The notes beneath the pieces were generated by a model that saw only the letters and a program-made list of their open reading frames with translations, was not told where the DNA came from and made no database searches. Both the position numbers and the translations under genes were made by a program. A stretch of 64,000 bases of DNA from a virus (lineage: Duplodnaviria > Caudoviricetes), in the IMG/VR virus record IMGVR_UViG_3300025530_000010, positions 7,781-71,780 of that record; one strand, 5' to 3'. This document shows, piece after piece, positions 30,376-60,016 of the stretch; the stretch's first letter is position 1; every line of letters starts with the position of its first letter.

Positions 30376-33300
30376 TCAGCGCAGGCCGGGGGCGCCCGTC
30401 TGGGGCAGGTAGGCCGGGTGCTGGGAGGGGTCCAGCAGGTCGTAGGGGCCGTCGATGAGGAACGGCCGGTAGCTCTCGTCCATGCCGTAGGTCCAGGCGT
30501 TGGCGAAGGCCCCCTTGCCCTGCTCGAAGTTGAGCCGGTTGACCGAGTGGTACTGCGGGTCCGGGCTGACGCTGTTGGCGATGAACTCCGGCGGCACCAG
30601 GCGCCCGCCGTAGGGGTTCTCGCCCCGGGCGTGGCGTTCGAGCTGGTCGACGTAGCGGTTGCGGGCACTGGCCAGCGACCGCTCGACGGGGATGTCGAGG
30701 AAGATCCCGTAGGGGGCCTCGTACCCGGCATCCCGCAGCTCCTGAATGCGGCTGGGGAGATGGTTGGGGTTGCGCAGCGTGCCGTCGAAGATGATGTTGG
30801 TGCCGTGCCTCATGGCCCGCTGCGCCAAGCGACGGGCCAGGTGCGACGATTCTTGATGAAACAGCGGCGCCAGTTCCATCGGGGTGTAGCCCTCGATCTG
30901 CGGCACCATCCCCCGGTCGATGAGCGCCTCCTTGATCTCATCGGGGTCGATGCGCAGGAAGTCGTCGGGCGAGCCCAGCCCCGGGATGTGCTGCAGCTTC
31001 CGTAGCAGCGTGCTCTTGCCGGAGCCCGGCAGCCCGCCGAGGATCAGTGCCCGCCGGTCGCGCGGGACGTGCTTGCCGCGCCGCTCCCAGATCTCGTCGA
31101 GGATCTCGTCGTGCAGCGCCGCACGCTCGGGCGTGTAGGTGCCGTCCGGCCCGGTGTAGACCAGGCTGGTGTTGAGGTGGGCGTTCTGCTCGAGGTCGCG
31201 GGCCAGCCTGGCGATGTGCTGGTCGAGCGCCTCCCCGGACAGGAAGGCCCCCCGGCGCCGCCGCGACGCCAGGCGCTCGTCGCCGTGGCCGCGCTGCCAG
31301 ACCGGCGACCACTTCTCCGACCCGTAGGGCTTGATCGCCACGTCGGTGATGCGCATGGGGGCGCCCGGCACCATGGTGACCTCGTACTCCCTGTCGTACT
31401 GGCCGCCGGTGTTGGAGCGCAGGGGATCCTCGCCACGGCCACCCCAGTCGGCCTGCATCCTCACCGGCAGGAAACGGGGGTGCTTGTGGGTCGGCACGGC
31501 GAAGCTGTGGGCCACGTAGGGGTCGATCGACCAGTGCCTGCCCACCCCCCGGGAGGTCTCGTGCGGCGCCAGCGGGATCTGGCCACGGTGGTTGTCGAGG
31601 TAGTCCAGGATGAGCTTGCCGATCTCGGGGTCGTCGACCCTCGGGTTGCCGAAAGCCTCGGCGTAGTAGGGATCCTCGGGGTCGAAGTCATGGACCGAGG
31701 GGATGTTGCGGTGCGCGGGGTTGAGCTCCGAGCGCGTCATGCCGGGCAGCACCTCCTGGGCGACCGCCTCACTGACCGCGCCCCTGAAGGCGTCCCCGTA
31801 CTCGGTCATGGCCACGTCACCGAGCAGGTCCTTGTGGTGCTGGTCGCCCCCGTCCTCAAGAGCGTCGCCGTACAGGCGCTTCCGGAGCTCCTCGGCCCCG
31901 GGGTGGAGCAGGTCGATGACGGTGCCCCGGTACAGCGCCGCCGGGGACATCGCGATCGGCATGCCCTCCAGCATATCGTCTGGGTCGATGGGCTCGGGAC
32001 TGGTGATGATGGAGGGCCTCGAGATGTCTTGGGCCCGTGGGTTCCAGTCGTTGGGCGAGTAGTAGTAGCGCCCTTGGCTTTCGACGTACGGGCGCTGCTG
32101 CTCCTTGAACATCATGGACTTTCCCGGCCGCCCAGCCGGATCCGATGGCGAGTGGCCCGGCCTCGGCGGCACCCACTCATCGGGGAAGTACTCGAAATCC
32201 TCGTAGTTCTCCACGGCGGCGTCGGGGTTGGCGTACCACTCCTCGAGCACCGCGTCCGGGATCTGCTCCTTCCAGGCCTGGACGTCGGGGTCGCTCCAGG
32301 GATCCGAAGCGCCGAGCTCGTTTTCGACCATGTGGCTGAAGATGTAGTCCCACAGCTCTTCCCGGTCGGCAAGAGGAGTGGTGGCGGTGCGGCGGGTCGA
32401 CGCCAGGCGCTTGTCGGTCTTCCCGCGCTGCCAGACCGACGACCAGTCGTCGTTGCCGTACGGCCTGATCGACACGTCGGTGATGCGCATGGGGGCGCCT
32501 GGCACCATGGTGATTTCGCGTTCGTCGGCATAATTGCCGCCGGTGTTGGAGCGCAGCGGATCCTCGCCACGGCCACCCCACTCGGCCTCCAGCAACACCG
32601 GCAGGAAGCGGGGGTGCTTGATTTCGACCTCGGAGAAGTCCTGTGCCCGACTGGGACTCGTCGACCAGTGCCTTCCCATTCCCCGGGAGGTCTCGTGCGC
32701 CTTGGCCGGGGTCTGCCTGCGGTAGGCGTCGAGGTAGTCGAGGATCAGCGGCCCAAGTTCCGGGTCGGAGACGGGGAGGTCGTACTCGATCTCATCGGAG
32801 TGGGGCTTGAGGTCACGGCGCCCCATCCCGGGCAGGGGCCGGTGTGCGTCCTCAAGCTCGAGGGCCTCGTACAGCTGCTCCTCGTAACCCCACGGCTCCG
32901 GAGGGCGCTTCCTGAACTTCTCGACCATCCCCTCGGCCATGTCCTCCAGGGCGTCACCGAAGATCCGCTGGCGGATCTCCTTGGCGGCCGGGTGCACCAG
33001 GTCGATGAAGGTGCCCCGGTACAGCGGCACCGACAGCTCCTCGGTGGGCATGCCCGGCAGGATGTCCTCCGGGTCGTACGCCTCGGGGTCAGCCTCGGTC
33101 TTCGGACGTGCCTTGCTGGGGGCCTTGGGGTTCCAGTCGTTAGGCGCGTAATACGGTTTCCCCGAAGGAGTTTCGGGGCGAGAGGCGGCGTCGAAAAGCG
33201 GTGTGTCGAGGCCTAGTTCGCCCTCCTCGTCCGACCCGTACCACTCCCCCTCCGGTGGGGTGTAGCCGTGGTGGTCGTCCATGAAGTCCTGCCAGTTCTC

Positions 33301-35622
33301 CAGGGCCAGCTCGGGATCCTCGCGCCACTCCTCGAGCACCGAGTCGGGGACCTGCTTCAGCCAGCTCCAGGCGTCCGATTCGGTGAAGCTCCACCCCGGA
33401 ATGGCGTCGTTGTCCCTCAGGTACTGGATCAGGTACTCCTCTTCCCAGTCCCGCGAGTAGGCGGTCTTGCGGACCCGAGCCTCCTTCGCCTTGGGGGCAC
33501 GGTGCGGGAAGTTCTTGGCGATCCAGGACTGCAGGTAGTCCATCCACGACATCGTCGTCGAGGAGATGCGGCGCAGCCAGCTCGGAGTCTCGCGCAGCCG
33601 GAGCTCCGGGCGCCGGGGGTCCACGATCCAGTCCGGGCTGCGCTCGCGCTGGTACTGCGGGATGGGCGGATAGGGGCTGTCGGCCGACAGCGGATTCTTC
33701 TCCATCCAGGCCTGCAGCTTCTCCGGGTCGTCGAAACCCGGGAAGTCCCTTGGCATCTGGCCGGTTTCAGGTTGCGGGCGCGAGTTGCCGTAGTCGAGAA
33801 GGTCCTGCTTGAACTTCGTCCACGCGATGGCCTGCGCCTGCTTGGGGATCAGGAACTGCAGGGGGTCCTCGCGCATCAGGTTGATGCGCCGGGTGGCCTC
33901 GGCGGCCGCACGGGCGTGCAGGTCGTAGGCTGGTTGGAAGTTCTCCCCGTTGATCTTCACCTTTGCGTCGAAGTACTTGGGGGTCTGGTACTTCAAGCTC
34001 TTCAGGTCGACGCCGTGCGGGGTGCCCGACATGCGCACGTGGTGGGTGTCGACGGTGACGTCCTGGTCGGGGATCAGGCGCCAGTCCGGCTCGCCGGTGT
34101 AGGGGTTGATCGGGATCTCGTAGTACCCCTCGTCGTCGTCGAATCCCTCCCTGGGTTCGCGCAGTCGGGTGCCGTCGAGGATGTTGTTGTAGAAGGCCCG
34201 GGTCTTGTTGCCGATCATCATCTCGGCGAAATCGGTTCCGGACGGGGCGTGGTAGATGTCGATGGCCTGCTGGATCTGCTTGCTCGGCGCCTTCGGGAAA
34301 CCGAAGTTCGGGTCGGTGCCGTCGTAGTGGGTCAGGAAGTGGGCGGCCTGCTCGACGTTGTCGTCCCAGGCCTTTACCGGCGAGAGGGCCGACATGACCG
34401 CCACCGCGCGAGGCAGGTCGCCCCAGGTCTTGTCGGACAGCTCCTTGGCGAAATCCCTTGCCGCCGAATACCATACGCGACCCGCGAACTGCTGTTCGGG
34501 CGTGGCGTTGAGGATGTGGTCCATGTGGTTGCGCACCAGGTCCTCGAAGGTGATCCCGGTGCCGTTGAGTATCCCGTAGGGGTCGTTGATCGGGTCCTCG
34601 CTGGCCTCAGCCCGCTTGCGGGATTGCGGCGACAGCTTCGCCTTGAGCGGGTGCGGGAGGTCCGACGACATCGGCGGGCGGCTGCTGGACTGGAAGGCGC
34701 CGTAGTCGTCGGCGGTGCGCCAGTCGACCTTCAGCCACGGCCGGTCGTCGGGGACGAGGTCGTCGTCGGCGACGGCCGTGCGGTGGCCGATGCGGTACAT
34801 GCTGGGCTTGAGCAGGGCGACCTTCTGCGGGGCGAAGGCGCCGTTGAGGATCAGCGACGAGTTCTGCCCGAGGGTCTCGGTGGCCAGGGCGGGCAGCGCC
34901 TGGGGGCTGAACATCCTGGAGTGCGCCAGGAAGGAGGCGTGCTCGCCGTGGCGGTCGAACGACCGGCCGGTCGCGGCGTGGCCGAACAGGTCGTGGACAA
35001 AGCGGAAGCGGTTGTTCGTCTCGTCGTCGAAGTACGGGTGCCCGCCGGTGACGTCGGTGCCCAGCACGCGCAGGCGCCGGTTGGCGTTGAGGTCGTCGAG
35101 CAGCTCGTGGACGTCGGCGTAGGGGTCGTAGTCGACCCACTCGGGCCTGACCCCCATCTGGTTGACCGCGAAGTCGAACTGCCGGTCGACGTCGCGGGCC
35201 ATCGCCTCAAAGTGCGGCACGGCCCGGTCGTCCCACTCGGGCAACTGGTCGTAGTAGCGGCCGACGGTGCGGACGCGCTCGGGCGTCTGGCGGATGTCGG
35301 CGTAGCTCGTGGCGTGCGGGTCGGCGAGGCTGTTCAGCCGTGCATACCCCCGGGCGCCCTCGACGGCGTGCCGCCAGGGGTCGAAGGCGACGTGGCGCTC
35401 CCAGCCGGTCGGGTCGGCCAGGCGGGCCTCCTGCTCCTCCAGGCTGAGGGCCGCGACCCTCGGCAGCAGCAGGCGCCGTCCGCCGGTGGTGTGCACGCAC
35501 CCGGAGAGCCCGGCCAGCAGGGCCAGGTCCGGGTGCGGTTCGTGGACGGAGGCGAACCGGTGCGGATACATCGCCGCCAGCGCGGCGACCTGCTCTCGAT
35601 GCGTGACGATTCTGCGGGCCAC
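30376..35622 (-). CDS. 1748-aa polyvalent protein: His-motif domain, HhH-glycosylase-like domain, two ADP-ribosyltransferase-like repeats, zeta-toxin-like kinase
   Basis: FRFVHDLFGH; GRVWY...ALSP...KTRAFYNNI...VTVDTHH; LYRG/HWST/EREI and LYRG/HWSI/EYEV; LILGGLPGSGKS-IDPDEIK-NIIFDGT. Confidence 0.85.
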   Translation of the reverse strand: MARRIVTHREQVAALAAMYPHRFASVHEPHPDLALLAGLSGCVHTTGGRRLLLPRVAALSLEEQEARLADPTGWERHVAFDPWRHAVEGARGYARLNSLADPHATSYADIRQTPERVRTVGRYYDQLPEWDDRAVPHFEAMARDVDRQFDFAVNQMGVRPEWVDYDPYADVHELLDDLNANRRLRVLGTDVTGGHPYFDDETNNRFRFVHDLFGHAATGRSFDRHGEHASFLAHSRMFSPQALPALATETLGQNSSLILNGAFAPQKVALLKPSMYRIGHRTAVADDDLVPDDRPWLKVDWRTADDYGAFQSSSRPPMSSDLPHPLKAKLSPQSRKRAEASEDPINDPYGILNGTGITFEDLVRNHMDHILNATPEQQFAGRVWYSAARDFAKELSDKTWGDLPRAVAVMSALSPVKAWDDNVEQAAHFLTHYDGTDPNFGFPKAPSKQIQQAIDIYHAPSGTDFAEMMIGNKTRAFYNNILDGTRLREPREGFDDDEGYYEIPINPYTGEPDWRLIPDQDVTVDTHHVRMSGTPHGVDLKSLKYQTPKYFDAKVKINGENFQPAYDLHARAAAEATRRINLMREDPLQFLIPKQAQAIAWTKFKQDLLDYGNSRPQPETGQMPRDFPGFDDPEKLQAWMEKNPLSADSPYPPIPQYQRERSPDWIVDPRRPELRLRETPSWLRRISSTTMSWMDYLQSWIAKNFPHRAPKAKEARVRKTAYSRDWEEEYLIQYLRDNDAIPGWSFTESDAWSWLKQVPDSVLEEWREDPELALENWQDFMDDHHGYTPPEGEWYGSDEEGELGLDTPLFDAASRPETPSGKPYYAPNDWNPKAPSKARPKTEADPEAYDPEDILPGMPTEELSVPLYRGTFIDLVHPAAKEIRQRIFGDALEDMAEGMVEKFRKRPPEPWGYEEQLYEALELEDAHRPLPGMGRRDLKPHSDEIEYDLPVSDPELGPLILDYLDAYRRQTPAKAHETSRGMGRHWSTSPSRAQDFSEVEIKHPRFLPVLLEAEWGGRGEDPLRSNTGGNYADEREITMVPGAPMRITDVSIRPYGNDDWSSVWQRGKTDKRLASTRRTATTPLADREELWDYIFSHMVENELGASDPWSDPDVQAWKEQIPDAVLEEWYANPDAAVENYEDFEYFPDEWVPPRPGHSPSDPAGRPGKSMMFKEQQRPYVESQGRYYYSPNDWNPRAQDISRPSIITSPEPIDPDDMLEGMPIAMSPAALYRGTVIDLLHPGAEELRKRLYGDALEDGGDQHHKDLLGDVAMTEYGDAFRGAVSEAVAQEVLPGMTRSELNPAHRNIPSVHDFDPEDPYYAEAFGNPRVDDPEIGKLILDYLDNHRGQIPLAPHETSRGVGRHWSIDPYVAHSFAVPTHKHPRFLPVRMQADWGGRGEDPLRSNTGGQYDREYEVTMVPGAPMRITDVAIKPYGSEKWSPVWQRGHGDERLASRRRRGAFLSGEALDQHIARLARDLEQNAHLNTSLVYTGPDGTYTPERAALHDEILDEIWERRGKHVPRDRRALILGGLPGSGKSTLLRKLQHIPGLGSPDDFLRIDPDEIKEALIDRGMVPQIEGYTPMELAPLFHQESSHLARRLAQRAMRHGTNIIFDGTLRNPNHLPSRIQELRDAGYEAPYGIFLDIPVERSLASARNRYVDQLERHARGENPYGGRLVPPEFIANSVSPDPQYHSVNRLNFEQGKGAFANAWTYGMDESYRPFLIDGPYDLLDPSQHPAYLPQTGAPGLR

Positions 35623-35637
35623 CCCTAACCTCCTCGC

Positions 35638-35669
35638 CTATTCCTCATTGGGAGGGGCGGGCATACAGG
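35638..35669 (-). promoter_or_regulatory. putative late promoter (polyvalent protein)
   Basis: CCTGTA-N18-AGGAATAG then GAGGAGG SD. Confidence 0.7.
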
Positions 35670-35690
35670 CTCCCGTCTCTATAGGCCAAT

Positions 35691-35719
35691 TTGCATGTAT
35701 CTATAAAAACTGCTATGAT
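35691..35719 (+). promoter_or_regulatory. strong SigA-like promoter, leaderless
   Basis: TTGCAT-N17-TATGAT with extended TG; ATG 6 nt after the -10. Confidence 0.85.
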
Positions 35720-35725
35720 AAAGAC

Positions 35726-37437: not shown

Positions 37438-38001
37438 CTATCCGATACGGCTACCGCCCTTGGCGATCTGGTCGTGGACGAACTTCGGGGTGTCGACGTA
37501 CTCGCCGCCCTCGCCCCAGGGGTCCTCGTAGGTGTAGACGCCGATCTGGTCGCCCGACAGGGCCGCCAGCGCCGCCTCCCACGGGTCGTCGTAGTTGCGC
37601 GAGACGTCGAGGTACCACTTCGGCTTCTTGTCCTCCTCGTCGGCGTCCTCGGGCACCGGATCGGTCGCCCTCGGGTGCTCCCAGCCGCCGAGGTAGTTCT
37701 CCGAGTCCGACAGCTCCTCGCGGTACCGATCGACGAAGTCGCGCAGCGCCTGCGCCGACGGCAGGGTCGGCGCCTTGACCTCCGAGCCCGGCAGCGACAC
37801 CATCGTGCCGCTCCTGGGGGCGTCCTCGGTGGTGAGCCCGACCGTCACCCCCGGGTCTCCCTTGATGGCGTTCTGGTAGATCGCCCGCAGCACATCGGCG
37901 TACCACTGGGCGTCCGGGTCGTCGGGGATGGCGGCCTGGCGCCGGACGTAGGCGACGCGGCCCGGGTACTGGGCGGCCTGGGACTGGATCGACTGTGGCA
38001 T
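37438..38001 (-). CDS. putative SAM-lyase-like protein
   Basis: GxT...G.MVS, YLGGW...WYLDVS...EAALAA...DQIGVY pattern; the CDS is clear but the function is inferred. Confidence 0.75.
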   Translation of the reverse strand: MPQSIQSQAAQYPGRVAYVRRQAAIPDDPDAQWYADVLRAIYQNAIKGDPGVTVGLTTEDAPRSGTMVSLPGSEVKAPTLPSAQALRDFVDRYREELSDSENYLGGWEHPRATDPVPEDADEEDKKPKWYLDVSRNYDDPWEAALAALSGDQIGVYTYEDPWGEGGEYVDTPKFVHDQIAKGGSRIG

Positions 38002-38130
38002 AACCAACCTCCTCTCCTATTCCCCGGCGGCCTGGGCGCGACGACAACGATTTTCCTCAATTCTATACCCACGCTAGGAATTTCGCCAGACCCGAATCGC
38101 CAGGGCAGAGCACGTCTGTAGGTGTCCCGG

Positions 38131-38182: not shown

Positions 38183-39181
38183 TCAGGCGGTCTTGCGGAT
38201 GATGACGATGCCACGCGGGTTGATGACGGCCATGCCAACCAGCTCATCCATCACCCACCCCTTGTGGAACTGTTCGACCCGGTTGTTCTCCTCGACGTCG
38301 AGCGAGTACATCACCGGGAAGACACCCAGGAACTCGGGATCCGGGGTCAGGTAGAAGGTGCCCTTCGGGATGATCACCGACTTGCCGATCTGGAACTCGC
38401 CGAACTGGACGATCCGCTCGCCCGCGACCACCGAGTCCTTGAACGCCCAACCGGTGGCATTCAGGTCCCAGCGGTAGAAGTCGCGGTAGTCCAGCGGGCC
38501 GCACAGCAGTCGGGTCGACTCCAGCAGCCGGGCGTCGGTGTAGCTGACGGCCTTGTACAGGTCGGCGGGCTGGATGATCGAGCTGGCAACGGTGATCTCG
38601 TTCGGCAGCGAGCCGGTGCCCGGGTTGGCGGTCGCGTCGACCAGCCGGTACTGGGCGGCGGCGACCTCCAGCAGGGTGATCAGGCGCGAGTCCTCCTGGC
38701 GCATGATCGCCTGCTTGGACTGGTCCTGCACGTACTCAACGACGTTGGTACGCAGCCAGTACAGGTCTTCCTTCTTGATCTGCGGGAAGGTCGCGATGCG
38801 GAACAGCTCGACCCGCAGACGCTTGCCCTCGAACGGCGTGATCTTGACCTCGCCCTCGTTGCCATGCAGGTAGTAGGCCTGGCCGAGGTCGTCGAGCACG
38901 TCGTACTCGACCGGCACACCCGGGGTGAGGGTGTCCTCCAGCAGCACGTTGCGCAGGATGCCCTGGTAGCGCAGCTGCAGCTGGATCGGGCCGATCATCG
39001 ACTGGCCCAGGCGCAGGAAGCCGTTCTGCCGGTCGTTGAGGATGTTGGCCAGCTTGCACTGCTTCTCGGCCGGGGTCAGCTTGCGGCCCAGCCGCTGCAT
39101 GGTGTTCTGGATCTCGGACACGTACTCCGAGGAGTGCTTGGCGAATCGCCCGTAACCGAGGGCGGTGACAGGTGCGGTCAT
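38183..39181 (-). CDS. major capsid protein (HK97 fold)
   Basis: LGQSMIGPIQLQLRYQGILRNVL, VELFRIATFPQI...EDL, ELVGMAVINPRGI; AGGAG SD before ATG 39181; followed by a terminator. Confidence 0.92.
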   Translation of the reverse strand: MTAPVTALGYGRFAKHSSEYVSEIQNTMQRLGRKLTPAEKQCKLANILNDRQNGFLRLGQSMIGPIQLQLRYQGILRNVLLEDTLTPGVPVEYDVLDDLGQAYYLHGNEGEVKITPFEGKRLRVELFRIATFPQIKKEDLYWLRTNVVEYVQDQSKQAIMRQEDSRLITLLEVAAAQYRLVDATANPGTGSLPNEITVASSIIQPADLYKAVSYTDARLLESTRLLCGPLDYRDFYRWDLNATGWAFKDSVVAGERIVQFGEFQIGKSVIIPKGTFYLTPDPEFLGVFPVMYSLDVEENNRVEQFHKGWVMDELVGMAVINPRGIVIIRKTA

Positions 39182-39770: not shown

Positions 39771-41081
39771 TCAGAGGAACAGGGCGGCGCCGTCGTCGGT
39801 CGGCGAGGCCGTGGCGGCCTGGCGGATCGTGGCGGCCGGACGCTGCGCGGTCAGGCCACGCGGGATCGACTGCATGCGCTGCTGGGCCGCAGCGGTCTTG
39901 GTCTTGGCGCCCTTGGCGTTAACGGCCTCCAGCAGCTTGATCCGGTCCACGACCACCGACTCGCGCATGTTCTCGGCCTGGCGGACCAGCTTCCACTGAT
40001 CCTTCTCCGGCGCCAGCCCGGCCTCGATGTAGGCCTTGGCGTAGCGCATCGCGGTGATGGCATCCGCCTTGCGAGCGGTCTTGTCGCCCTCGCCAGGGGC
40101 CCAGATCTGGGAGTCGGAGCTCAGCTCCGGATCGGCGATGTCGTCCCCGGCGTTGTTGCCGAAGTCGTGCAAGTCGTACTGCGAGGCCTGGGCGTCGGCG
40201 TCGGTGACGTTCTTGACGGGGGCCTCGACATCGACCCGCGCGTCCGGCGCCGCGACCTCCAGGGACTCATCCTGCGCAAAGCGCTTCACCTTCGCCTCCT
40301 TGAGGGCCCGTTCCAGCCCCCGCCCCAGAGTCTGAATGTCAACGTTGTTGGCCCGGGCCCAACGCACGGCCTGGCGACGCACCCACCGGGTGTTGGTGTG
40401 TTGTGCGACCCTGCGACCAGTAGCGCGCTTCATCCACTCGTCAAAGGTGGCGAAGACCTTCTTGCTGGCATCCTTGGGCTGGGTCTCGACGTCATCGAGC
40501 GAGACGTCATCGAAGTTGTCGCCCTTGAGATCCTGCTCGTCGGTACCGCTCAGCGGCGGATCGACCTTCTCGGCCTGCTCGACGGCATCGGCGACACGAC
40601 GCGAGGCCTGGCGGCCCCGGTAGAACTCGGCGGCCAGGCGCGGATCCAGGCCCACGGCCTGGTAGAAGCGCGCCGGGCTGAATCGCGGATTCTCGGCCTT
40701 GAACGCGGCGCAGAAGTGCCGGGCCATCGCCAGCCGCTGCCGGGGCGGCATGGTGCCGACGAACCTGGCCGTCTCGACGTACGGGCGGGCGCTGGCCGTG
40801 GTGATGATCGGCTTGCGAGATGCCTTGCCCGCCAAGCGCTGATAGGCGTTCAGGTCACGCTGCAGATCGGCGGCCTTGGCACGGATACGGGCCACCAGGG
40901 TGTTGACGGTGTTTTCGATCTTCGGCTCATCACCGGTCGGCGCCTCGACCTCCTCGGCGGCGGGCGTCTGGGAGATGTAGAGCTCCTCCTGCTCACCCTG
41001 GTCGTTGCGCCCGTACGGGCTGCCGTCGGTGTGGCCGCTGGTATCGGCCAGGCGGCGACGGCGCGCCTTGGTAGCGCTCAT
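39771..41081 (-). CDS. probable nested in-frame scaffold protein (internal start)
   Basis: GAAAGGA-N6-ATG at 41081 inside the protease ORF (MSATKARRRRLAD...). Confidence 0.55.
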   Translation of the reverse strand: MSATKARRRRLADTSGHTDGSPYGRNDQGEQEELYISQTPAAEEVEAPTGDEPKIENTVNTLVARIRAKAADLQRDLNAYQRLAGKASRKPIITTASARPYVETARFVGTMPPRQRLAMARHFCAAFKAENPRFSPARFYQAVGLDPRLAAEFYRGRQASRRVADAVEQAEKVDPPLSGTDEQDLKGDNFDDVSLDDVETQPKDASKKVFATFDEWMKRATGRRVAQHTNTRWVRRQAVRWARANNVDIQTLGRGLERALKEAKVKRFAQDESLEVAAPDARVDVEAPVKNVTDADAQASQYDLHDFGNNAGDDIADPELSSDSQIWAPGEGDKTARKADAITAMRYAKAYIEAGLAPEKDQWKLVRQAENMRESVVVDRIKLLEAVNAKGAKTKTAAAQQRMQSIPRGLTAQRPAATIRQAATASPTDDGAALFL

Positions 41082-43235
41082 GGCAGATCCTTTCCGCGTC
41101 TGTCCCCTGTTCATGGCGCGGCGTCCCTTCTTTGCAGGGGGCTTTCCTGTGCCGAAGAAGAAGTCCCACGGAAGGGTTTCTCGATAACGCTCAATGTTCC
41201 TGACCAGCGTTCGGTCATCACCTTCACCGGCTGCGACATAAAGGGCTTCAAGCTCATCGCGATTCAGGTCGCGGATGTCCTTGATACCGTCCGGAGTCCA
41301 GTAGGTGTAACCATCCTCACCGGAACCGGGGGTACTGGCGCGGCGGGCCGACTTTGCAGAGCGGGTGCGGCGGCGCGCCTCCCGGTACTCCTCTTCGTCC
41401 TCGTCGGAGTCCTCGTCCTCGTCGGAGTCCTCGTCCTCGTCAGAGTCCTCGTCCTCGTCGGAGTCCTCGTCCTCGTCGGAGTCATCCGGCCCATCGGGGT
41501 CCTCCCCCAGAACGGCCTCCTGGTGTCCGTCCGGCTCGTCGAGCTCGGCGTCGCCGTCGAGGTCCATACCGAGCACCTCCTCGAGCAGCTCCAGCTGGGC
41601 CTGCTCCTCGGGGGACAGGGACGGCAGACCGCCCAGCTCCTCGACCGGCGGAACCGGAATCGGCGGGACACCAACCGCCGTGCGCGTCGTGCGGCGACGG
41701 CGGCGCTTGGCCTTGGCCATTGTCATCCTCCTCATCAGGACTTCATCGGGATCGGGGTCGCCGTCGACGACGCCCTTGCCTTCGACCTCCTCGACAAGCC
41801 GTTCCTCGTCGAGGCCTGCGGCCTCCTGCCGCTCGTCAAACTCCTTGACCCTGTCGAAGTTTGGTCCACTGAGCTCCGGCGGCGATTTGAGGTAGTGCTT
41901 GAACGGCGACTCCTCGACCGGCGCGATCTGGTCGACGAAGTCGTAGTCGTCGAGGGTGTCGTTCTCGTCGTTGCGCAGCGTGTCGATGTCCTCGGGAACC
42001 TCGATCTCGCCGTAGGCAATTCGTCGCCGCGAACTGGTGCGCATGGGGATCGGGGCGGTGTGCACGTGGTCCATGTGGTTCTGGGTGGGGCTGCCCCGGT
42101 CCGACATGCCGACGACCGAACCGTCGGCGTTCCACTGCTTTTGCTGCCACAGCACGTACGGGGCGCCGTGCTCGAAGGCCTTCTGCATGACCGAGCGGGC
42201 CACGGCCGGATCGGTGGTCATGACGTCCAGGGCACCCCGGTCGTGCTCGTGGTAGTTGTCGACCCGGTAGCCGCCGATCTCCAGGTCCGGGAATTCGGCC
42301 CTGATCGCGTCGTAGAGCGGGCGGGCATTAGGCAGAATGCCGCTGGCGTCCGGGGTGCCGCCGCCACCGGCCGGGACGCCCTGGCCGCCGGAGAAGCCAG
42401 CGCCGGAGACACCGCTGCCGTAGGAGGAGTCCCACTTGCCGAAGTCGCCCTGGACGGGGGTCGCGTAGGCGCTGTAGTCGGTGGTGTCCTCGCCACCCAT
42501 CTGCTCGCCGTCGACCTCGATGTCGTAGATGTTGTCCTCGTCGTCGTCTGCGGCGGTGCGCTTGTTGGCGACCATCACCCGGCTGACGACGGCGGTCTCG
42601 TCGGCGGGGTCGAAAACGTAACTGAGCTCGAAGAATCCGAGCTTGTAGCAGTCCTCGTAGACGAGCTTCTCCTCGGTCTTGCCCGTCTTGGGGTTCTTGA
42701 CCTTGACGTACTTGCCCTTGTGATTTCGGACGTGGTCGCAGAAGTCGGACTCGTCGACGGCCTTGTTGCCGCAGGCCGAGCAGATGGTGAAGCCCGCCTC
42801 GACGCCCATCGAGACGCTGTCGAGGCCGCCCTCGCGAATCTCCTTGGCCAGCTTGGGGAATCGCTGGGCGTCGATCTCCATGATGGTCTCGATGTACTTG
42901 TCGTCACCGTTTTCGACGTAGCGGGCAGCGATGACCTTGCCCCGGGCCCGGCTGGGGTCGAAGTTCTGGTGGTTGACGAAGACCGGCTTGCCGATGAACG
43001 TGCGGTAGGCCTTCTTCAACTCCTCGCTCGGCCAGGCGTCGAAGTTTTGGTTGATGCGGGCCGAGATGGCCCGCACCTGGGTGTAGAGGAAGCCCGGCTT
43101 GGGCTCCCAGCCCTTGGCCACCGCGCTGTTGTCGTCGGCCTTGTAGGCCAGAATGACCTGGCGCAGACCGGCATCGGAGAGCTCGCGGCTCTGTGATGCG
43201 GTCACGACACGGCGCTGGCGGGTTGTGGTGCTCAC
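39771..43235 (-). CDS. prohead protease - wall peptidase - scaffold polyprotein (1154 aa)
   Basis: KPVFVNHQN, DSVSMG...CSACG...CDH, FELSYVFDPAD protease motifs; GGYR..HEH...ALDVM...NHMDHVH Zn-peptidase; acidic/coiled C-terminus ending GAALFL. Confidence 0.85.
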   Translation of the reverse strand: MSTTTRQRRVVTASQSRELSDAGLRQVILAYKADDNSAVAKGWEPKPGFLYTQVRAISARINQNFDAWPSEELKKAYRTFIGKPVFVNHQNFDPSRARGKVIAARYVENGDDKYIETIMEIDAQRFPKLAKEIREGGLDSVSMGVEAGFTICSACGNKAVDESDFCDHVRNHKGKYVKVKNPKTGKTEEKLVYEDCYKLGFFELSYVFDPADETAVVSRVMVANKRTAADDDEDNIYDIEVDGEQMGGEDTTDYSAYATPVQGDFGKWDSSYGSGVSGAGFSGGQGVPAGGGGTPDASGILPNARPLYDAIRAEFPDLEIGGYRVDNYHEHDRGALDVMTTDPAVARSVMQKAFEHGAPYVLWQQKQWNADGSVVGMSDRGSPTQNHMDHVHTAPIPMRTSSRRRIAYGEIEVPEDIDTLRNDENDTLDDYDFVDQIAPVEESPFKHYLKSPPELSGPNFDRVKEFDERQEAAGLDEERLVEEVEGKGVVDGDPDPDEVLMRRMTMAKAKRRRRRTTRTAVGVPPIPVPPVEELGGLPSLSPEEQAQLELLEEVLGMDLDGDAELDEPDGHQEAVLGEDPDGPDDSDEDEDSDEDEDSDEDEDSDEDEDSDEDEEEYREARRRTRSAKSARRASTPGSGEDGYTYWTPDGIKDIRDLNRDELEALYVAAGEGDDRTLVRNIERYRETLPWDFFFGTGKPPAKKGRRAMNRGQTRKGSAMSATKARRRRLADTSGHTDGSPYGRNDQGEQEELYISQTPAAEEVEAPTGDEPKIENTVNTLVARIRAKAADLQRDLNAYQRLAGKASRKPIITTASARPYVETARFVGTMPPRQRLAMARHFCAAFKAENPRFSPARFYQAVGLDPRLAAEFYRGRQASRRVADAVEQAEKVDPPLSGTDEQDLKGDNFDDVSLDDVETQPKDASKKVFATFDEWMKRATGRRVAQHTNTRWVRRQAVRWARANNVDIQTLGRGLERALKEAKVKRFAQDESLEVAAPDARVDVEAPVKNVTDADAQASQYDLHDFGNNAGDDIADPELSSDSQIWAPGEGDKTARKADAITAMRYAKAYIEAGLAPEKDQWKLVRQAENMRESVVVDRIKLLEAVNAKGAKTKTAAAQQRMQSIPRGLTAQRPAATIRQAATASPTDDGAALFL
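41395..41484. repeat. 5 x 18-bp coding tandem repeat (DSDEDE)
   Basis: TCGTCCTCGTCGGAGTCC x5 with single variants. Confidence 0.95.
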
Positions 43236-47966: not shown

Positions 47967-48273
47967 CCTCCAGGACACCAATCGTCTCGGTCACCTCGCC
48001 GTCGACCGGGGCGACCGGGCTGGTCGCGCAGTAGTCGTAGGCGATCGTGACATCTTCGTTTCGGGTGGCCCATCTATAGTGCCCCAGAAATTCGTTTTTG
48101 GGAAAATGCAAGCGGTCGGCGAGCGCGGCCAGCAGCGCCACAACCTTGGCGCGGCCGGTGTCGGTGGACAGGTCCAAACCCGCGTACTGGTCCCAGACGA
48201 TGGTGCCGTCGGGCAGCTGCAGCCCGTACCGAACCCTGGTGTAGCGGTCGGTGCCCGCCTCGATCAGTCCCAT
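47890..48273 (-). CDS. hypothetical protein (127 aa)
   Basis: GGGAG SD overlapping the portal 3' end; 3' end overlaps the next ORF. Confidence 0.55.
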   Translation of the reverse strand: MGLIEAGTDRYTRVRYGLQLPDGTIVWDQYAGLDLSTDTGRAKVVALLAALADRLHFPKNEFLGHYRWATRNEDVTIAYDYCATSPVAPVDGEVTETIGVLEDGDDQGAAAEDHARAVRPGHLGGTA

Positions 48274-50699
48274 ACCGGCGTGTCTCCCGTGATCTCCTCG
48301 TACTGGCGAAGCATCTCCTCGAGCAGCTGGGCGGATTCCGGCGCCCCACCGGCGGCGATCTCGGCGAAGTCGGCGCGGATCTGGCTCTCCAGGTGGCCGA
48401 GGTTGAGCATCTGGTAAAAGGCCGGGTCCTCGACCAGCTCACGCACGCGCGGCACCGGATGCCGGGCAGTCAGCTCGCGGCGGCGCACGGCCCGCTCGAC
48501 GTGGGCACGGTCGACGGTGGCCGAGTGGCCGTAGCTGGACGGGCCGCGCTGCAGCCAGGTGGCGCCCGGGTCGGCCTCGCCGATGGCCACCCGCAGCCCG
48601 GTGCGGCTCTTGGAGGCCATGCGCGGGGCCCCGGCCCGCATCTCGTCGGAGATCTCCGGGCGGGCCCGGTTCACCGGCTGCTCGGGCGGCAGCGGCTCCT
48701 GCGGCGGCCCGGGCTGCCCGGCCGGGGCGGGCCCGGGCGCGGGGGCACCGCCGGGCGGCGGCGTTGGCGGCAGCAGCCCGAGCTGTCCGGCCGGGGTCAT
48801 CTGCTGCTGCTGCTGCTCGAGCATGTCGGCCTGCGCCTCGGCCATCTCGGTCCCGGCCAGCTGCTGGCGCAGCATCAGCGTCTGCTGCAGGTAGGCGATG
48901 AGGTCCGGCGGGTACGGCATCTGCTGCTCGTACGGCCGGGTGGCGTTCATCGAGTCGATGATCTGCTTGGCCTTGCTCATCGCCTGGGCCTGGGCGACCA
49001 GCTTGTTGACGGTCTCCTCGGACTGGCGCTGCAGCTCCAGGTCGAAGTCGATCTGCTGATTGATCGCCAGGGTCTTGTCCGAGATCGGCACGCCGGAGGC
49101 CTTCAGGTCGGCGATGAAGGCCCGCTCGGTCTGCTCGTCGCGCAGGTTGAGGCTGCGGAACCGGATCTGCGGGATCAGCAGCTGCGGCACCTCGACGACC
49201 TCGGACTCGCCGGTCTCGGGGTCGATCCGCTGGATCTTGCGCATGATGGGCACCCGCAGGTTGCCCTTGCGCTCGTAGGCATAGAACTCCTGGGCCTCGG
49301 CGACGACCTCCATGCGCTTTTTGATGTGCCTGACCACCTTGCGTTGGAAGTCCTTCATGTTCAGCTCGCACACCTCGCGGTTGAGCGCCGAGGAGGCGTA
49401 GGTCCCGGCCGCTGCGGTGCCGCCCATGATGAGGGCCTGGCCGATGCCCCAGGCCTGCATCAACTTCATGTCGATGCGGTCGTAGTCCTGGTCGAAGCGC
49501 GGAACCGACTCGCGGCCGAAGACGCTCTCGATCTTCAGGCCCAGGTGGTGGACCATGAGTTTGAAATCCGCCATGAGGGCGGCCTGCATGTCGTCTCGGA
49601 CGGCGGCCAGCTCGTCGGGGGTGGGGATCCATGGCTCGCCGTCGCCCATGTCCGGAATGCCAAGGGTGGCAAGGACAAACGGGCTGTAGAGCCGGTCGGC
49701 CACCGCGTCCTGGGCGGCGTTGAGGCTCTCCTCCATCAGCAGGGTGCGGAAGCTGCGCATCAGCGGCGGCACGCCGCGCAGGTCCCACGGGCTGATCTTG
49801 TTGACGATGCGGCTCCACAGGGCCTCGGAGATGTCCAGGCCGTCGTCCTGGTTGGCCGCCTCGATGATCTCCGGGTGATGACTGAGCAGCTGCTGGTATT
49901 CCCAGTTGCGCTGCATCTGTTCGGATTTGGTCTCCCTGCCGCTGCCCGGCGGGGTGCGCAGGTTCTCCACCAGCTGCTTGACCATCAGCTGCACGCGCTC
50001 CTGGGAGACGAACGCGCTCTTGCTGACCCGGATGTAGTCGGGATTGAGCACCTCCTCGTCGGCCCAGGTGCCCAAGGACTCATCGAAGTGCCCCAGGGTG
50101 GTCACCTCGCCGGAGATGAAGTACTCGCGGCCGAGCTCGTTGGGCAGGAAGTTCTCGTAGTCCAGGTCGTCAAGGAACATCTTGGAGAAGAAGTCCTCGA
50201 CCTTCTTGTCGTCGCAGACGAATTCGAGGCCGGTGACCGGGAACCGGGCGTAGATGTCGATCAGCAGCGGCACCAGGTCGTGGGTGGCGTAGTAGGCCCG
50301 CGCCCAGCGCCGGGCCTCCGACAGCACCTCGGGGTCCTCGATCTGAATCGGGATGCCCTTGTCCTTGAGCGTGCCGAGGGGCTCGCGGGCCTTGGGCATG
50401 GCCAGCAGCACGTCCGAGGCGGTGTGCTGGGTGGAGGCCAGGCGGCGCATGTTGTCCGCGCGCACTCGGCGCATGTGGGCCTCGACGTTGCGGACGGTGT
50501 CCTCCAGCGACCCGGTCCTGACGGTCTCGGCGACCTTCTTGGCCTCAACCCGGGCCTGCACAGGCGAATTCGGCAACGCATAGCCAGCCTGGCGCAGCCG
50601 GTTCATCTCGGCGGTCAGGTTGGACACCTGCAGGCCCGATCGGGTGCGGCCCCGCCGGTCGATGACCGGGAAGCTTGGGGTGGATTCCTCGGAGCTCAT
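48264..50699 (-). CDS. portal protein with C-terminal extension
   Basis: YYATHDLVPLLIDIYARFP, REYFISGEV, RGVPPLMRSFRTL, IPQIRFRSLNLRDE; position before the head genes. Confidence 0.88.
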   Translation of the reverse strand: MSSEESTPSFPVIDRRGRTRSGLQVSNLTAEMNRLRQAGYALPNSPVQARVEAKKVAETVRTGSLEDTVRNVEAHMRRVRADNMRRLASTQHTASDVLLAMPKAREPLGTLKDKGIPIQIEDPEVLSEARRWARAYYATHDLVPLLIDIYARFPVTGLEFVCDDKKVEDFFSKMFLDDLDYENFLPNELGREYFISGEVTTLGHFDESLGTWADEEVLNPDYIRVSKSAFVSQERVQLMVKQLVENLRTPPGSGRETKSEQMQRNWEYQQLLSHHPEIIEAANQDDGLDISEALWSRIVNKISPWDLRGVPPLMRSFRTLLMEESLNAAQDAVADRLYSPFVLATLGIPDMGDGEPWIPTPDELAAVRDDMQAALMADFKLMVHHLGLKIESVFGRESVPRFDQDYDRIDMKLMQAWGIGQALIMGGTAAAGTYASSALNREVCELNMKDFQRKVVRHIKKRMEVVAEAQEFYAYERKGNLRVPIMRKIQRIDPETGESEVVEVPQLLIPQIRFRSLNLRDEQTERAFIADLKASGVPISDKTLAINQQIDFDLELQRQSEETVNKLVAQAQAMSKAKQIIDSMNATRPYEQQMPYPPDLIAYLQQTLMLRQQLAGTEMAEAQADMLEQQQQQMTPAGQLGLLPPTPPPGGAPAPGPAPAGQPGPPQEPLPPEQPVNRARPEISDEMRAGAPRMASKSRTGLRVAIGEADPGATWLQRGPSSYGHSATVDRAHVERAVRRRELTARHPVPRVRELVEDPAFYQMLNLGHLESQIRADFAEIAAGGAPESAQLLEEMLRQYEEITGDTPVWD

Positions 50700-51073: not shown

Positions 51074-53382
51074 TCATCCTCCTCGCCGGAGTCCTCGCGA
51101 TCATCCTCGTCGTCGTCCGAGTTGTCTTCGGCGACTTTGCGATTGGCGGTCCAGCGCCCGGCCGGATCGCGCTTGGCCCAGTCCTTGGGGGCCTTCTTCA
51201 TCGTGGGGGTGCCGGGATCCTGGCCGTCCTCGGGTTCGGTGCCGCCCGGCTGGGTGATGTCGTGCAGGGCGGCCTCGCGGGCGGTGTAGGCCTCGGCGAC
51301 GAATCTGGCGAAGTCATCGCCAGTACCGGTCCTGCCGGAACCGGGGGCTGCCTTGGACGCGACGATCACGTTCTCGCGCACCGGGATCTCCCGCACCAGG
51401 TAGCGCGATGCGCTTGCCTCGTGACGGTCGCCGCCGGTACCGATGACGTAGCTGTTCCACTGCTTGCCGCAGGCGCAGCGGTGGAAGCCGCTCGGGGCAC
51501 TGAATTCATGACCGCAGGAGCAGGCGAATTTCTTTGGGGCACTAGCGACATGCGCCATCAGGTAGTCGTCCCACTCCCAGCCGTCGACGGTGTGGCCGGA
51601 GTTGTCGACAGCGGCGGTCCTGATGGCCGCCTCGTGCTCCTGGGTGGTGGTCGGGTTGAGGTGCTTCTTGAGCTTCTGCAGGGCCCGGGGGCCGACCTTG
51701 ACCTCCTCGACGAACTGGTCGATGTCGGCCTCGGTGCCGGTGGGCAGGCTGCCGCGCTGCGGCTGCTTGCGCTGCCACTGGTCGAACTTGGTCAACACAT
51801 CGCCCTTGCGTTGTTTCTTGCCCTTACCGGCGGCCGTGCGGGTCGGGGGGACGGGATCCGGCAGGGTCTCGGCGTAGGCGATCGCGTCGGTGTAGTTCTC
51901 GAACGGGCCGTAACGAATATCGCTGGGGAACTTGCCGGGCCGAAGAATGTAGCCCCCATTTACGGCGCTGGTGACGTCCCAGGTGCCGTTGGTGATGAGG
52001 TGGTAGTCGAGATCCAGGTTCTGCCGCCAGCCCGGGGCAACCTCATCCCAGGGGTCGTGGCGGCGCCGACCAGGACCGTACTCCCAGATGTCGTCGTACC
52101 CGTAGGGGTCTTCGTGGGGAGTCATGAACCGCATGCCGTCAGCGGTCTTGTGGCGGCTGGCCATCATCATCTGCGGCGGCACCCCACCCATCGCGGCCGG
52201 ATCCATCGGCGGCATCCCGCCACCCATCGCGGCCGGATCCATCGGCAGCCCACCGGCCGGGGCGCCGCCCTGGGCGCCGGTGCCCTCCGGCATGACGTTG
52301 ATCTGGCCGCCCGGCATGACACTGAAGGGGGCGTTGGCCTGCTGCTCGGCGAGGGCCTGCTGAACGATCACCAGGGCCTGCTGCAGCGGCGCGATGCTTT
52401 CCTGAAACTCCTCGGCCTTCTGATTGAGCAGACCAGTCAGGGCGTCGTTGGCCTTCTGCAGGTAGTCCGGCGCGGCGGTGATCAGCCGCCGGTCGAACGC
52501 ACCGGCCTTGGCCAGGCGCTGCATGGTCCCGGCGACCTTGAAGTAGGTGTCGGTCGGCAACTTGGCCGCGAAGCGGTCGAGGGCGTCGAGGGTCGGCGCG
52601 ACCCGGGCCTTGCGGCACCAGGCCAAGAACTGGCGGGTCACCGCCGAGGCCTTGAGGTTTCGCTGCACAAGCCCCCAGAAGGCTTCCGGCGAAACCGCTT
52701 GATCGAGGTACTGGGCAGCACGGTCGGGACCGGGGTAGTCACCGAGGGGGTAGGGTCCGACGTGCTCACCGAGCGCCTTGACGATGCCGTCGATATCGAA
52801 ATCGGAGGCCTGATCCCCAAGTGCCTCAAGGACATAGCGCTGCAGGTCACGGTCGGTGATGATGCCGTTGGCTCGCTTGGTCCGACCACCCTTCTTGGCG
52901 AAGTCGGTGTCGTCCGGGTCCTTGGTGTGCTCGGTGCCCTCGCCGGTGAACAGGTGGTCGACCTTACTCTCGGCGTCCTGGTCGACGCGGTCGAGGTAGC
53001 CCTTGAAGTCGCCCTCTGGCTTCAGCGGCCCGTCACTCGAGACGAAGGTCGACTCGACCTCGACGATCTCGACCTTCTTGTCGCCGTTCTCGGCGATCTT
53101 GGTGGTAGCCCGCCAGTCACGCTCGAGTTGGGCGCAGATGCGCCGCATGATGCCCTTGCGCGGCGGGACGCCGTTGCGGACGACGATGTCGCGGATGTCC
53201 CGCTTGGCCAGTGCCACACGGTTGCGAAACTCGGAGACCGACTTGGCCCCCCGCAGGAAGGGGCCGACCTGCTGGTCGACGTCGTAGATCGCTGCGGCCA
53301 GTTTATCGGCGGCGATCCGCTGCTGGCGCTGCCGTTCGGTCTCACCCGCCGCCGCCACCTCGAAAATGCCGATGTCGCTCAC
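51070..53382 (-). CDS. 770-aa modular head-region protein with Zn ribbon
   Basis: GAGGAG SD; modules separated by KIA/KRA/KTA/RTAA; CSCG...CACG ribbon. Confidence 0.8.
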   Translation of the reverse strand: MSDIGIFEVAAAGETERQRQQRIAADKLAAAIYDVDQQVGPFLRGAKSVSEFRNRVALAKRDIRDIVVRNGVPPRKGIMRRICAQLERDWRATTKIAENGDKKVEIVEVESTFVSSDGPLKPEGDFKGYLDRVDQDAESKVDHLFTGEGTEHTKDPDDTDFAKKGGRTKRANGIITDRDLQRYVLEALGDQASDFDIDGIVKALGEHVGPYPLGDYPGPDRAAQYLDQAVSPEAFWGLVQRNLKASAVTRQFLAWCRKARVAPTLDALDRFAAKLPTDTYFKVAGTMQRLAKAGAFDRRLITAAPDYLQKANDALTGLLNQKAEEFQESIAPLQQALVIVQQALAEQQANAPFSVMPGGQINVMPEGTGAQGGAPAGGLPMDPAAMGGGMPPMDPAAMGGVPPQMMMASRHKTADGMRFMTPHEDPYGYDDIWEYGPGRRRHDPWDEVAPGWRQNLDLDYHLITNGTWDVTSAVNGGYILRPGKFPSDIRYGPFENYTDAIAYAETLPDPVPPTRTAAGKGKKQRKGDVLTKFDQWQRKQPQRGSLPTGTEADIDQFVEEVKVGPRALQKLKKHLNPTTTQEHEAAIRTAAVDNSGHTVDGWEWDDYLMAHVASAPKKFACSCGHEFSAPSGFHRCACGKQWNSYVIGTGGDRHEASASRYLVREIPVRENVIVASKAAPGSGRTGTGDDFARFVAEAYTAREAALHDITQPGGTEPEDGQDPGTPTMKKAPKDWAKRDPAGRWTANRKVAEDNSDDDEDDREDSGEEDE

Positions 53383-54302: not shown

Positions 54303-54308
54303 GGTGCC

Positions 54309-59407: not shown

Positions 59408-60016
59408 TCATGGCAAGAACAGCAGCTCGGCCGAGAAGTCGGTCCGGGGCGCGGCGACAGCGGCCACCCGTGGCCGGGCGGTGGCCCGGCCGCGCTCGAT
59501 GACCCGGTCGACGAAGGCTGCCGTGACGACCCGGGCACGCTCGGGGGCGAGCTTGCCCAGGTGGGCGTCGGCGTGGCGGCGGGCCCGCTCGCCGAGCTCC
59601 TCATGGTCGTGTGCGACGTCGGCGTTGTCGCGGGCGAACCGGGCGGCCTCGAGCTCGACCCAGCGCCGCTCACCGTCGGTGAGCGGCAGACGTTTGGAAG
59701 CGGTCCGGCCGGGAGCAGAGCGGGAGACACCGGCCTCCCGGCCGAGACCGCCTGACAGCAGGTCCTGCCGCAGTTCCCGCACCGCCTGCATGTCCGCTGT
59801 CAGCTCGCGGTAGGCCGCCAGATACCGCGCATTGCCGGGATCGCGCGCAAGCTGGCCCCGCACCGTGGCGAGCAGGTTGGCGCAGCGTCGCAAGCGCTGG
59901 TCGGCGGAGTGGATGCTGCCGTCGAACCAGTTGTCTGCGCTGTCGTGCCACTGCCTGAGCGCGGTTGCGATGCGATCGGCCGTACGCTGCGGCCCCTTGG
60001 CTGCAAAATGAAACAT
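59408..60016 (-). CDS. hypothetical helical protein with R-x-A motifs (possible head protein)
   Basis: AGGAGG SD; RTAD, RTAS, RVAA. Confidence 0.75.
   Translation of the reverse strand: MFHFAAKGPQRTADRIATALRQWHDSADNWFDGSIHSADQRLRRCANLLATVRGQLARDPGNARYLAAYRELTADMQAVRELRQDLLSGGLGREAGVSRSAPGRTASKRLPLTDGERRWVELEAARFARDNADVAHDHEELGERARRHADAHLGKLAPERARVVTAAFVDRVIERGRATARPRVAAVAAPRTDFSAELLFLP

Follow-up and report, generated by a model that had tools for sequence, protein, structure and literature searches.

The window analysed here, a 64,000-nucleotide stretch (positions 7,781 to 71,780) of the IMG/VR virus record IMGVR_UViG_3300025530_000010, is part of a 71.8-kb contig, has 68% G+C and carries nearly all of its genes on the minus strand. 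Its gene order is syntenic with that of Mycobacterium phage Phrappuccino, a temperate myovirus of cluster AA, and, less closely, with that of the Bxz1-like phages of cluster C. The window holds the head module of a temperate, Phrappuccino-like actinomyovirus. We analyzed a short motif of its head proteins, [RK(H)]-x-[A/G], as a candidate recognition site of the prohead protease encoded in the same module. An original prediction made from the sequence had described basic (R/K)-x-A junctions, usually behind an Arg-rich run, at the module boundaries of nearly all head-region proteins (30376 to 60016), and every one of its motif strings was found in the translated minus-strand genes. The span that it treated as the head region was too long, since the head module stops near 53382; tail genes (sheath, tape measure, baseplate) lie to its left, and integrase and lysin genes to its right. 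The module runs in the order gp770, portal, 2H-ligase-like protein, SWIM/LysM protein, protease fusion, cement protein, major capsid protein (MCP), gp189 and gp1748. The protease gene thus lies between those of the portal and the MCP, and the order portal, SWIM/LysM, protease, cement, MCP is common to the window, Phrappuccino and Nappy. The genes that carry the sites discussed below are as follows.

51070-53382, minus strand: gp770, at one end of the head module
48264-50699, minus strand: portal
43284-46655, minus strand: SWIM/LysM protein
39771-43235, minus strand: protease fusion of 1154 residues
38183-39232, minus strand: MCP
37438-38007, minus strand: gp189, the 'SAM-lyase-like' protein of the original prediction
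30376-35622, minus strand: gp1748, a multi-domain protein of 1748 residues

Enrichment of the motif was calculated for the nine head proteins of the window against shuffles within 20-residue windows, which keep the local composition. The form [RK][TLIVF]A was observed 54 times against 20 expected (z 7.9), [RK]TA 16 times against 4.5, and the loose form [RK].A 110 times against 77 (z 4.3). Reversed motifs showed no enrichment in the head proteins (17 observed, 20 expected), and neither did the motif in the tail and other genes of the window (28 observed, 23 expected), a control set confirmed as the tail module by its sheath, tape measure and baseplate genes. An unbiased scan of all 400 a.b residue pairs placed R.A joint first and K.A fourth in the head proteins, and neither ranked in the tail. 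This comparison of head and tail, one of the checks suggested with the original prediction, agrees with its remark that the motif is not obvious in tail proteins. The enrichment was repeated in the head orthologues of Phrappuccino and Nappy and was absent from their tail or other genes. Over non-redundant families, the ratio of observed to expected copies was 2.5 for protease fusions, 2.2 for SWIM/LysM proteins, 3.3 for gp770 and 2.7 for the MCP.

Conservation was scored in query-anchored BLAST alignments of each family, and the neighbours of metagenomic homologues were read from IMG/VR loci. With a positional tolerance of ±4 residues, conservation of the forward motif exceeded that of the reversed control in each of the five families tested; in the protease family the values were 0.63 and 0.51, and 14/39 forward sites were conserved at 0.8 or more, compared with 4/31 reversed ones. 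The background of the motif at random positions ranged from 0.06 to 0.31 across families and was 0.16 for the protease fusion. At the conserved sites, P3 was Arg in 69%, Lys in 22% and His in 9%, P1 was Ala in 79% and Gly in 21%, and P1' was mixed (A/D/S/G/Q). One short motif is conserved in common by the MCP, the protease-scaffold fusion, the portal, the SWIM/LysM protein and gp770.

The putative enzyme is the protease fusion's N-terminal domain. In an AlphaFold2 (AF2) model of this domain alone, comparison with T4 gp21 (5jbl) gave a VIA Z of 10.7 and a root-mean-square deviation of 2.7 over 129 residues, comparison with herpesvirus proteases gave Z values of 7-9.4, and the top Foldseek matches were all T4 gp21 and herpesvirus proteases; the full-length AF2 model rendered the protease domain poorly. 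On the domain model, the predicted fold is that of T4 gp21 and herpesvirus assemblin (MEROPS clan SH). H89 and S142 show no variation in sets of 28 and of 51 diverse homologues. The domain has an insert, a zinc ribbon of the invariant form Cys-x2-Cys...Cys-x-His (C152, C155, C166, H168; 42729-42782, minus strand), and this stretch matched only zinc-finger chains when searched against the PDB by sequence. The head module yielded no other protease domain.

A database search with the fusion returned 439 homologues, which have about 225 N-terminal and about 290 C-terminal residues in common and differ in their middles, where PF26571, SLT, transglycosylase-like and isochorismatase domains and inteins occur. 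The motif stands at about ten conserved positions of the protease-scaffold fusion, each of them within or next to a linker predicted to be disordered. The domains and sites are listed below; pLDDT is the predicted local distance difference test score, HSP a high-scoring segment pair of BLAST, and fractions give the homologues with the motif.

42561..43235, minus strand: prohead protease domain, residues 1-225 of the fusion; phrog_18299 'head maturation protease', E 4e-22; AF2 pLDDT 87.6
42552..42560, minus strand: R226-T-A228, junction directly after the protease domain and predicted self-release site; [RKH]x[AG] in 71/86 non-redundant homologues
42039..42362, minus strand: cell-wall-hydrolase-like module, residues 292-399, with H..D..HxH; folded block of pLDDT 76-96 bounded by sites 226 and 405
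42015..42023, minus strand: R405-I-A407, before the conserved YGEIEAPEDIDTLR segment; 76/89; P1' Y/W/F
41676..41684, minus strand: R518-T-A520, a weaker site after an Arg run, in the disordered segment 479-546; 35/68
41046..41081, minus strand: M719 and R728-L-A730; 69/83, P1' D/E; A730 at least 90% conserved in 28 diverse homologues
40590..40598, minus strand: R880-V-A882, before DAVE, at a helix end and the start of a low-pLDDT segment; 49/78; HSP starts at 864-888
40404..40412, minus strand: R942-V-A944, in a loop within the helical scaffold-like region; 74/86, P2 Thr in 66
40275..40283, minus strand: R985-F-A987, before (D/N)ESLEVAA, at the start of the low-pLDDT segment 986-1012; 78/90
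40065..40073, minus strand: R1055-K-A1057, at the boundary of a disordered stretch and a helical block; 84/93
39816..39842, minus strand: R1132-P-A1134 and R1138-Q-A1140, double site of the C-terminal tail, consensus RTAST.RTAANDP; 63/92 and 71/88

The first of these sites marks the end of the enzyme. Just past the protease domain, nearly all homologues carry KRTA, RRQA, KKTA, NKTA or similar strings, followed by complete divergence of sequence and by unrelated modules, and distant standalone proteases of about 220 residues terminate at the position of R226-T-A228. Residues 229-404, which hold the hydrolase-like module, are an insertion: homologues of the P0028 type are without it, and the end of their protease is joined directly to the AYGEIEAPEDIDTLR segment, which in the window comes after the second motif copy, RRRIA↓YGE (the arrow marks the presumed bond). 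At this copy, R405-I-A407, BLAST HSP starts cluster at 391-407 and a low-pLDDT segment opens. The hydrolase-like module itself has PF26571 precomputed for most of the listed homologues, and PHROG and tblastn matches to tape-measure and endolysin proteins. The folded blocks of the full-length AF2 model are 292-399, 647-683, 777-805, 817-877, 920-985 and 1054-1115, and the six protease sites named in the original prediction all lie in, or at the edge of, low-pLDDT linkers. Met719 (41079-41081, minus strand), located twelve residues ahead of R-L-A730, does not vary among 28 diverse homologues and has a Shine-Dalgarno-like AAAGGA upstream; translation probably also starts there, in frame, and yields a separate, nested scaffold-like protein of 436 residues. 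In several homologues (P0003, P0009, P0015, P0020, P0022, P0038 and L044) the protease domain ends at about residue 536-646 and not at about 200; some of these have intein/Hint domains (PF05203, PF14890), which points to inteins in the protease gene or to large additions on its N-terminal side.

The capsid protein provides the link to a cleavage that has been measured in another phage. Two sites are conserved near its N-terminus.

39005..39013, minus strand: MCP R74-L-G76, predicted maturation cut before Q77; R[LI]GQ in 73/75 orthologous loci and KLAQ in the other 2
39140..39148, minus strand: MCP R29-F-A31 (G-R-F-A↓K), inside the predicted propeptide; conserved in 16/17 non-redundant orthologues

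Bacillus phage G encodes homologues of both proteins, the protease gp19 matching the protease fusion in tblastn (33% identity, E 3e-25) and the MCP gp27 matching the window MCP (29% identity, E 4e-36). N-terminal sequencing showed that the phage G MCP is shortened from 282 to 255 residues on maturation (Hua et al. 2017, PMC5646251, Table 1), which places the cut at GRVALA↓QAM, and the masses computed for the two forms, 31.19 and 28.17 kDa, match the published 31.2 and 28.2 (PMC5646251). In the pairwise alignment, A27↓Q28 of phage G stands opposite G76↓Q77 of the window MCP (F-L-R-L-G↓Q-S-M), supporting a cut after a small residue and a propeptide of about 60 residues in the MCP. The C-terminal tail of phage G gp19 (L083:8841-9743) contains K-V-A↓S right after the domain and K-I-A↓S further on, strings of the basic-x-Ala pattern with a herpes-like Ser at P1'. 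The original prediction had also pointed to the C-terminus of the MCP, which does end in RKTA; most orthologues end in RKS, and RKTA as a product-like C-terminus was rejected because it is not conserved.

The remaining head proteins contain the following sites, with fractions as above.

43398..43406, minus strand: SWIM/LysM R1084-T-A1086 (RTAGR); conserved in 31/31
45234..45998, minus strand: SWIM/LysM R220-L-A222, R356-V-A358 and R472-T-A474, each before a conserved module; 22/30, 18/28 and 11/16
50418..50444, minus strand: portal R86-L-A88 and H92-T-A94, N-terminal, consensus R-T-[AG]-[SA]-[DN], in the window HTA↓SD; 15/23 and 19/25
48615..48623, minus strand: portal R693-M-A695 (P-[RK]-x-A), before a variable C-terminal extension; 20/30
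51613..51621, minus strand: gp770 R588-T-A590, the best-conserved gp770 site; 10/13
31246..34782, minus strand: gp1748 internal sites RTA 281, RTA 302, KTA 719, RLA 1072 with RTA 1078, and RLA 1450 with RGA 1457
37933..37959, minus strand: gp189 R17-V-A19 and R23-Q-A25, N-terminal; present in the sequence, with one orthologue recovered

Some orthologous portals stop a few residues past the position of R693-M-A695, and others have variable extensions. The gp770 sites at 95, 412, 515 and 749 are weaker than R588-T-A590. gp1748 combines phrog_3170, phrog_2878/DUF7178, a ParB-C-like region and a zeta-toxin kinase, and its sites 281, 302 and 719 coincide with the limits of PHROG domains. They also fall at the breakpoints between modules that have genes of their own in cluster C phages (gp108, gp109), and RTA↓V and W-R-T-A-D-D-Y-G are kept there in both arrangements. 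The match of gp189 to phrog_3170 covers only the C-terminal part of that family (292-393), and the N-terminal part (5-275) corresponds to the first gp1748 module (34786-35622, minus strand). In cluster C phages both parts are in one protein of 438 residues with RTA↓V between them, and the family looks, from these matches, to have been split and rearranged at the motif. Packaging of the multi-domain head proteins in the virion and their delivery to the host, both predicted, draw support only from gene position and from one weak PHROG match labelled 'minor head protein'. In the SWIM/LysM protein, TARRFLFA at residue 806 was considered as a Tat-like (twin-arginine translocation) signal and dropped, as it is internal and poorly conserved.

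Many unrelated proteins encoded just after the MCP gene have, in addition, an N-terminal leader in common, represented in the window by one copy.

35551..35622, minus strand: gp1748 leader (MARRIVTHREQ...), ending in R22-F-A24; common to unrelated proteins encoded after the MCP gene

Its pattern is (R)RI[VIT]T[AH]REQ-x3-L-x-PW-[RH]-[TIE]-A. In related loci it heads unrelated proteins of 86-1748 residues, with 17 distinct copies of the strict pattern, and a hidden Markov model search recovered further copies at independent E-values of 3e-11 to 1e-3 (carriers: the window and loci L001, L002, L004, L006, L008-L010, L020, L021, L024-L026, L039, L043, L044, L046 and L053). The leader ends in [RKH]x[AG] in 12/16 copies examined, often as PW-R-T-A↓A. 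Internal copies, at residue 258 of L010 and at residue 803 of Phrappuccino gp57, suggest gene fusions in which the leader was retained. By analogy with the T4 internal proteins, the leader is probably a capsid-targeting propeptide. The original prediction had assigned targeting to the Arg run; P4 is Arg in only 22% of the conserved sites, and the RRIVTAREQ...PWRTA leader is the better candidate for a packaging signal. Of the proposed processing code, the recognition site is supported indirectly, the motif behaving like one at junctions, in linkers, in its conservation and at the MCP cut aligned with phage G, and the Arg run as a targeting signal is not supported.

Several genes of the window stand outside this arrangement. 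A transposase gene (12236-13342, plus strand; phrog_506, E 3e-139) lies on the opposite strand within the tail module and is likely an insertion sequence. Between gp1748 and gp189, a plus-strand gene with high G+C at third codon positions (35309-36967; phrog_2319, function unknown) interrupts the minus-strand head operon; its long open reading frame overlaps the start of gp1748, and its own true start is uncertain. A protein of 202 residues (59408-60016, minus strand) contains the strings QRTAD and GRTAS; its gene lies past those of the integrase and lysin and is not part of the head module, and it had no informative family match.

Taken together, [RK(H)]-x-[A/G] is most likely a cutting tag for the capsid protease in the head proteins. 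The grounds for reading it as a prohead-protease site are its place behind the protease domain, at the point where standalone proteases terminate, its presence beside inserted modules and in predicted linkers, and its conservation in the MCP, scaffold, portal and cargo, with an invariant MCP copy aligned with the phage G cut. Several observations weigh against this reading. The motif has few residues and was defined post hoc, once the sequence had been inspected, so the enrichment figures are supportive and not proof. The loose (R/K)-x-A form was enriched only about 1.4-fold, the portal and gp1748 families have specific sites without overall excess (ratio about 1.06), and many R-x-A copies belong to helices within folded domains, where not every one of them can be a site. 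Regarding the enzyme, neither the protease domain nor its 51 homologues matched Pfam above threshold (Peptidase_S77/S78/U35), with one weak S78_2 match at E 0.036; a PDB sequence search with the domain gave no match, leaving PHROG 18299 as its only match by sequence, and the putative catalytic role of H89 and S142 is based on invariance and not on residue-level superposition. The phage G cut has Ala at P3 and Arg at P5 and so does not demonstrate a basic P3. In the literature on actinomyovirus virion processing (Myrna, Bxz1, Phrappuccino, E3, phage G), the N-terminus of the phage G MCP was the only cleavage datum; for actinomyoviruses we found no measured cleavage, packaging or ejection and no proteomic or N-terminal data, in line with the statement in the original prediction that no characterisation was known.

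Part of this bears on the explanation that the motif has no function, the R-x-A excess arising from Arg/Ala-rich amphipathic helices, low-complexity linkers, the 68% G+C genome and the shared ancestry of homologues. Arg and Ala are indeed abundant in the proteome, relatedness inflates the z-scores across homologues, the z of 3.4 in the unbiased pair scan is about the maximum expected among 400 patterns, and strict column-by-column conservation differed only slightly between R-x-A (0.42) and A-x-R (0.37), a strict 'island' criterion finding few sites. Insertions and deletions in linkers shift the motif, and the ±4 tolerance with its controls was the more informative. However, at identical composition the reversed motif was not enriched, tail proteins of the same genome had no excess, the motif is kept at junctions whose flanks cannot be aligned and lies in predicted disordered linkers rather than helices, and R-L-G↓Q is invariant at the position cut in phage G, all of which make a functionless excess unlikely. 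The motif might instead be a binding or targeting element, such as a patch of basic residues for the docking of cargo to the scaffold, the portal or DNA, with the proteins intact in the virion. Basic residues often precede the sites (the P4 Arg above), and leader and motif stand at N-termini, the place of T4 targeting signals; yet a small residue is needed two positions past the base and the orientation matters, which fits a protease subsite better than a charge patch, the motif recurs many times within the scaffold, and in phage G the corresponding MCP position has been proven to be a scissile bond, so that we give this explanation a low probability. Equally improbable in our view is a real cleavage signal read by another host or phage protease, or cut only after ejection into the host. 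The link between this enzyme and the sites is indirect, and processing of polyvalent proteins before packaging or after injection is discussed by Iyer et al. (2017, PMC5512222), but the head module has the single protease domain noted above, the motif falls exactly at its C-terminal end and is also on the MCP and scaffold, canonical prohead-protease substrates, and in phage G virions the aligned bond of the MCP is found cut.

Processing of the head module by its own gp21-fold prohead protease, at sites with basic P3 and Ala/Gly P1, is the best explanation of these data as a whole and one that we consider probable. What the data show is the presence, enrichment and conservation of the motif, its position at linkers and junctions, the fold of the protease and the homologous cut in phage G; what we infer is the role of this protease as the cutting enzyme, the exact scissile bond, and the packaging and ejection of the proteins. 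The enzyme would recognise P3-x-P1 with Arg or Lys (rarely His) at P3 and Ala or Gly at P1, and cut after the small residue. It would be synthesised in one polypeptide with the cell-wall-hydrolase module and the scaffold, with a nested scaffold probably produced from M719, and would cleave itself free at R-T-A228. The hydrolase module would be released via the flanking sites 226 and 405, and the scaffold region cut at about eight conserved sites so that the fragments can exit the shell. Removal of a capsid propeptide of about 60 residues at R-L-G76↓Q77, trimming of the portal, and separation of the modules of the SWIM/LysM protein, gp770 and gp1748 (with its zeta-kinase domain) would follow the same rule. 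Proteins encoded after the capsid gene would probably be targeted to the capsid by the N-terminal leader RRIVT[A/H]REQ...PW-R-T-A, itself ending in a protease site. A wider proposal, which we put forward only tentatively, is that Bxz1/Phrappuccino-type actinomyoviruses have a portable loading code in two parts, in which a leader of about 20 residues (RRIVTAREQ..LxPW) would load any protein into the prohead and an [RK]-x-[AG] site, cut by a gp21-fold protease with herpes-like P1 specificity, would free it; new effectors (zeta-type kinase, ART-like modules, cell-wall hydrolases) could therefore be added by in-frame fusion and injected with the DNA.

Proteases of the gp21/assemblin fold read sites of the format P3-x-P1: T4 gp21 cuts at (L/I)-x-E↓, the phiKZ and SPN3US enzymes at (S/A/G)-x-E↓ and herpes assemblins at (V/L)-x-A↓S. 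The basic-x-Ala/Gly rule has this same format, and the herpes enzymes share Ala at P1. Like T4, with its gp21, IPI-III and Alt, the window combines a gp21-like fold with a short P3-x-P1 motif across MCP, scaffold and putatively packaged proteins, and its N-terminal leader ending in the predicted cleavage motif resembles the T4 capsid-targeting sequences. In contrast, T4 cuts after Glu, has a protease that is not fused to cargo or scaffold, and shows no sequence-level similarity to the window protease. In phiKZ (gp175) and SPN3US (gp245), many head and ejection proteins are substrates of a single protease that recognises a short motif, and the cuts mostly remove N-terminal propeptides (PMC10052503, PMC5694885). 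There, cleavage at the (S/A/G)-x-E motif is proven by mass spectrometry, whereas cleavage in the actinomyoviruses is predicted, and the window differs further in stringing its modules into multi-domain fusions. The herpesvirus assemblin system (UL26/UL26.5) shares the fold, the protease-scaffold fusion, a nested in-frame scaffold start (M719, predicted), P1 Ala and, as predicted in the window, self-release of the protease just after its own domain; the nested start of lambda C/Nu3, like that of UL26.5, is matched by the Met719 arrangement. The conserved sites do not follow the herpesvirus specificity, since their P3 is basic and not hydrophobic and their P1' varied and not Ser, and the window fusion has extra enzyme cargo inserted. 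Phage G (gp19/gp27; PMC5646251; PDB 6wkk) has homologous protease and MCP, the latter cut after a small residue opposite R-L-G↓Q, but the cut is A-L-A↓Q with Arg at P5, and the protease, at 301 residues, is without the hydrolase and scaffold fusion.

Polyvalent proteins are giant proteins with several enzyme domains whose genes stand among late structural ones, and both packaging and delivery are predicted for them; some contain assemblin-like peptidase domains, which are predicted to process them and are described at C-termini only (Iyer et al. 2017, PMC5512222). In the window, gp1748 and the SWIM/LysM protein are likewise multi-domain proteins, and the protease fusion contains a hydrolase module, all among phage late genes. 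The window differs in that its protease is N-terminal and in that a motif and a leader are defined; neither a cleavage motif nor a leader was found in the searched passages of that study. The specificity for basic P3 and small P1, the protease-hydrolase-scaffold fusion and the leader appear new, and we found no description in the literature of head maturation or carried cargo in Bxz1-like and related myoviruses.

The protease fusion matched 674 phage records, 407 of them Mycobacterium and 161 Gordonia, and the head module is common to several hundred myoviruses with known sequences, the Bxz1-like ones (cluster C) and related ones of Gordonia, Rhodococcus and Mycobacterium. Because hosts and phages can be cultivated (M. 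smegmatis mc2 155; Phrappuccino, Bxz1), the prediction is directly testable. The cutting rule would predict the mature ends of capsid, portal and scaffold proteins, which aids model building in cryo-electron microscopy as well as annotation, and would split huge 'hypothetical' head proteins into testable enzymes. It also suggests a tag for loading chosen proteins into mycobacteriophage capsids. If the reading is true, a third class of specificity, defined by a basic P3 and a small P1, would have arisen within the gp21/assemblin fold, between the Glu-specific enzymes of phages and the Ala-specific enzymes of herpesviruses.

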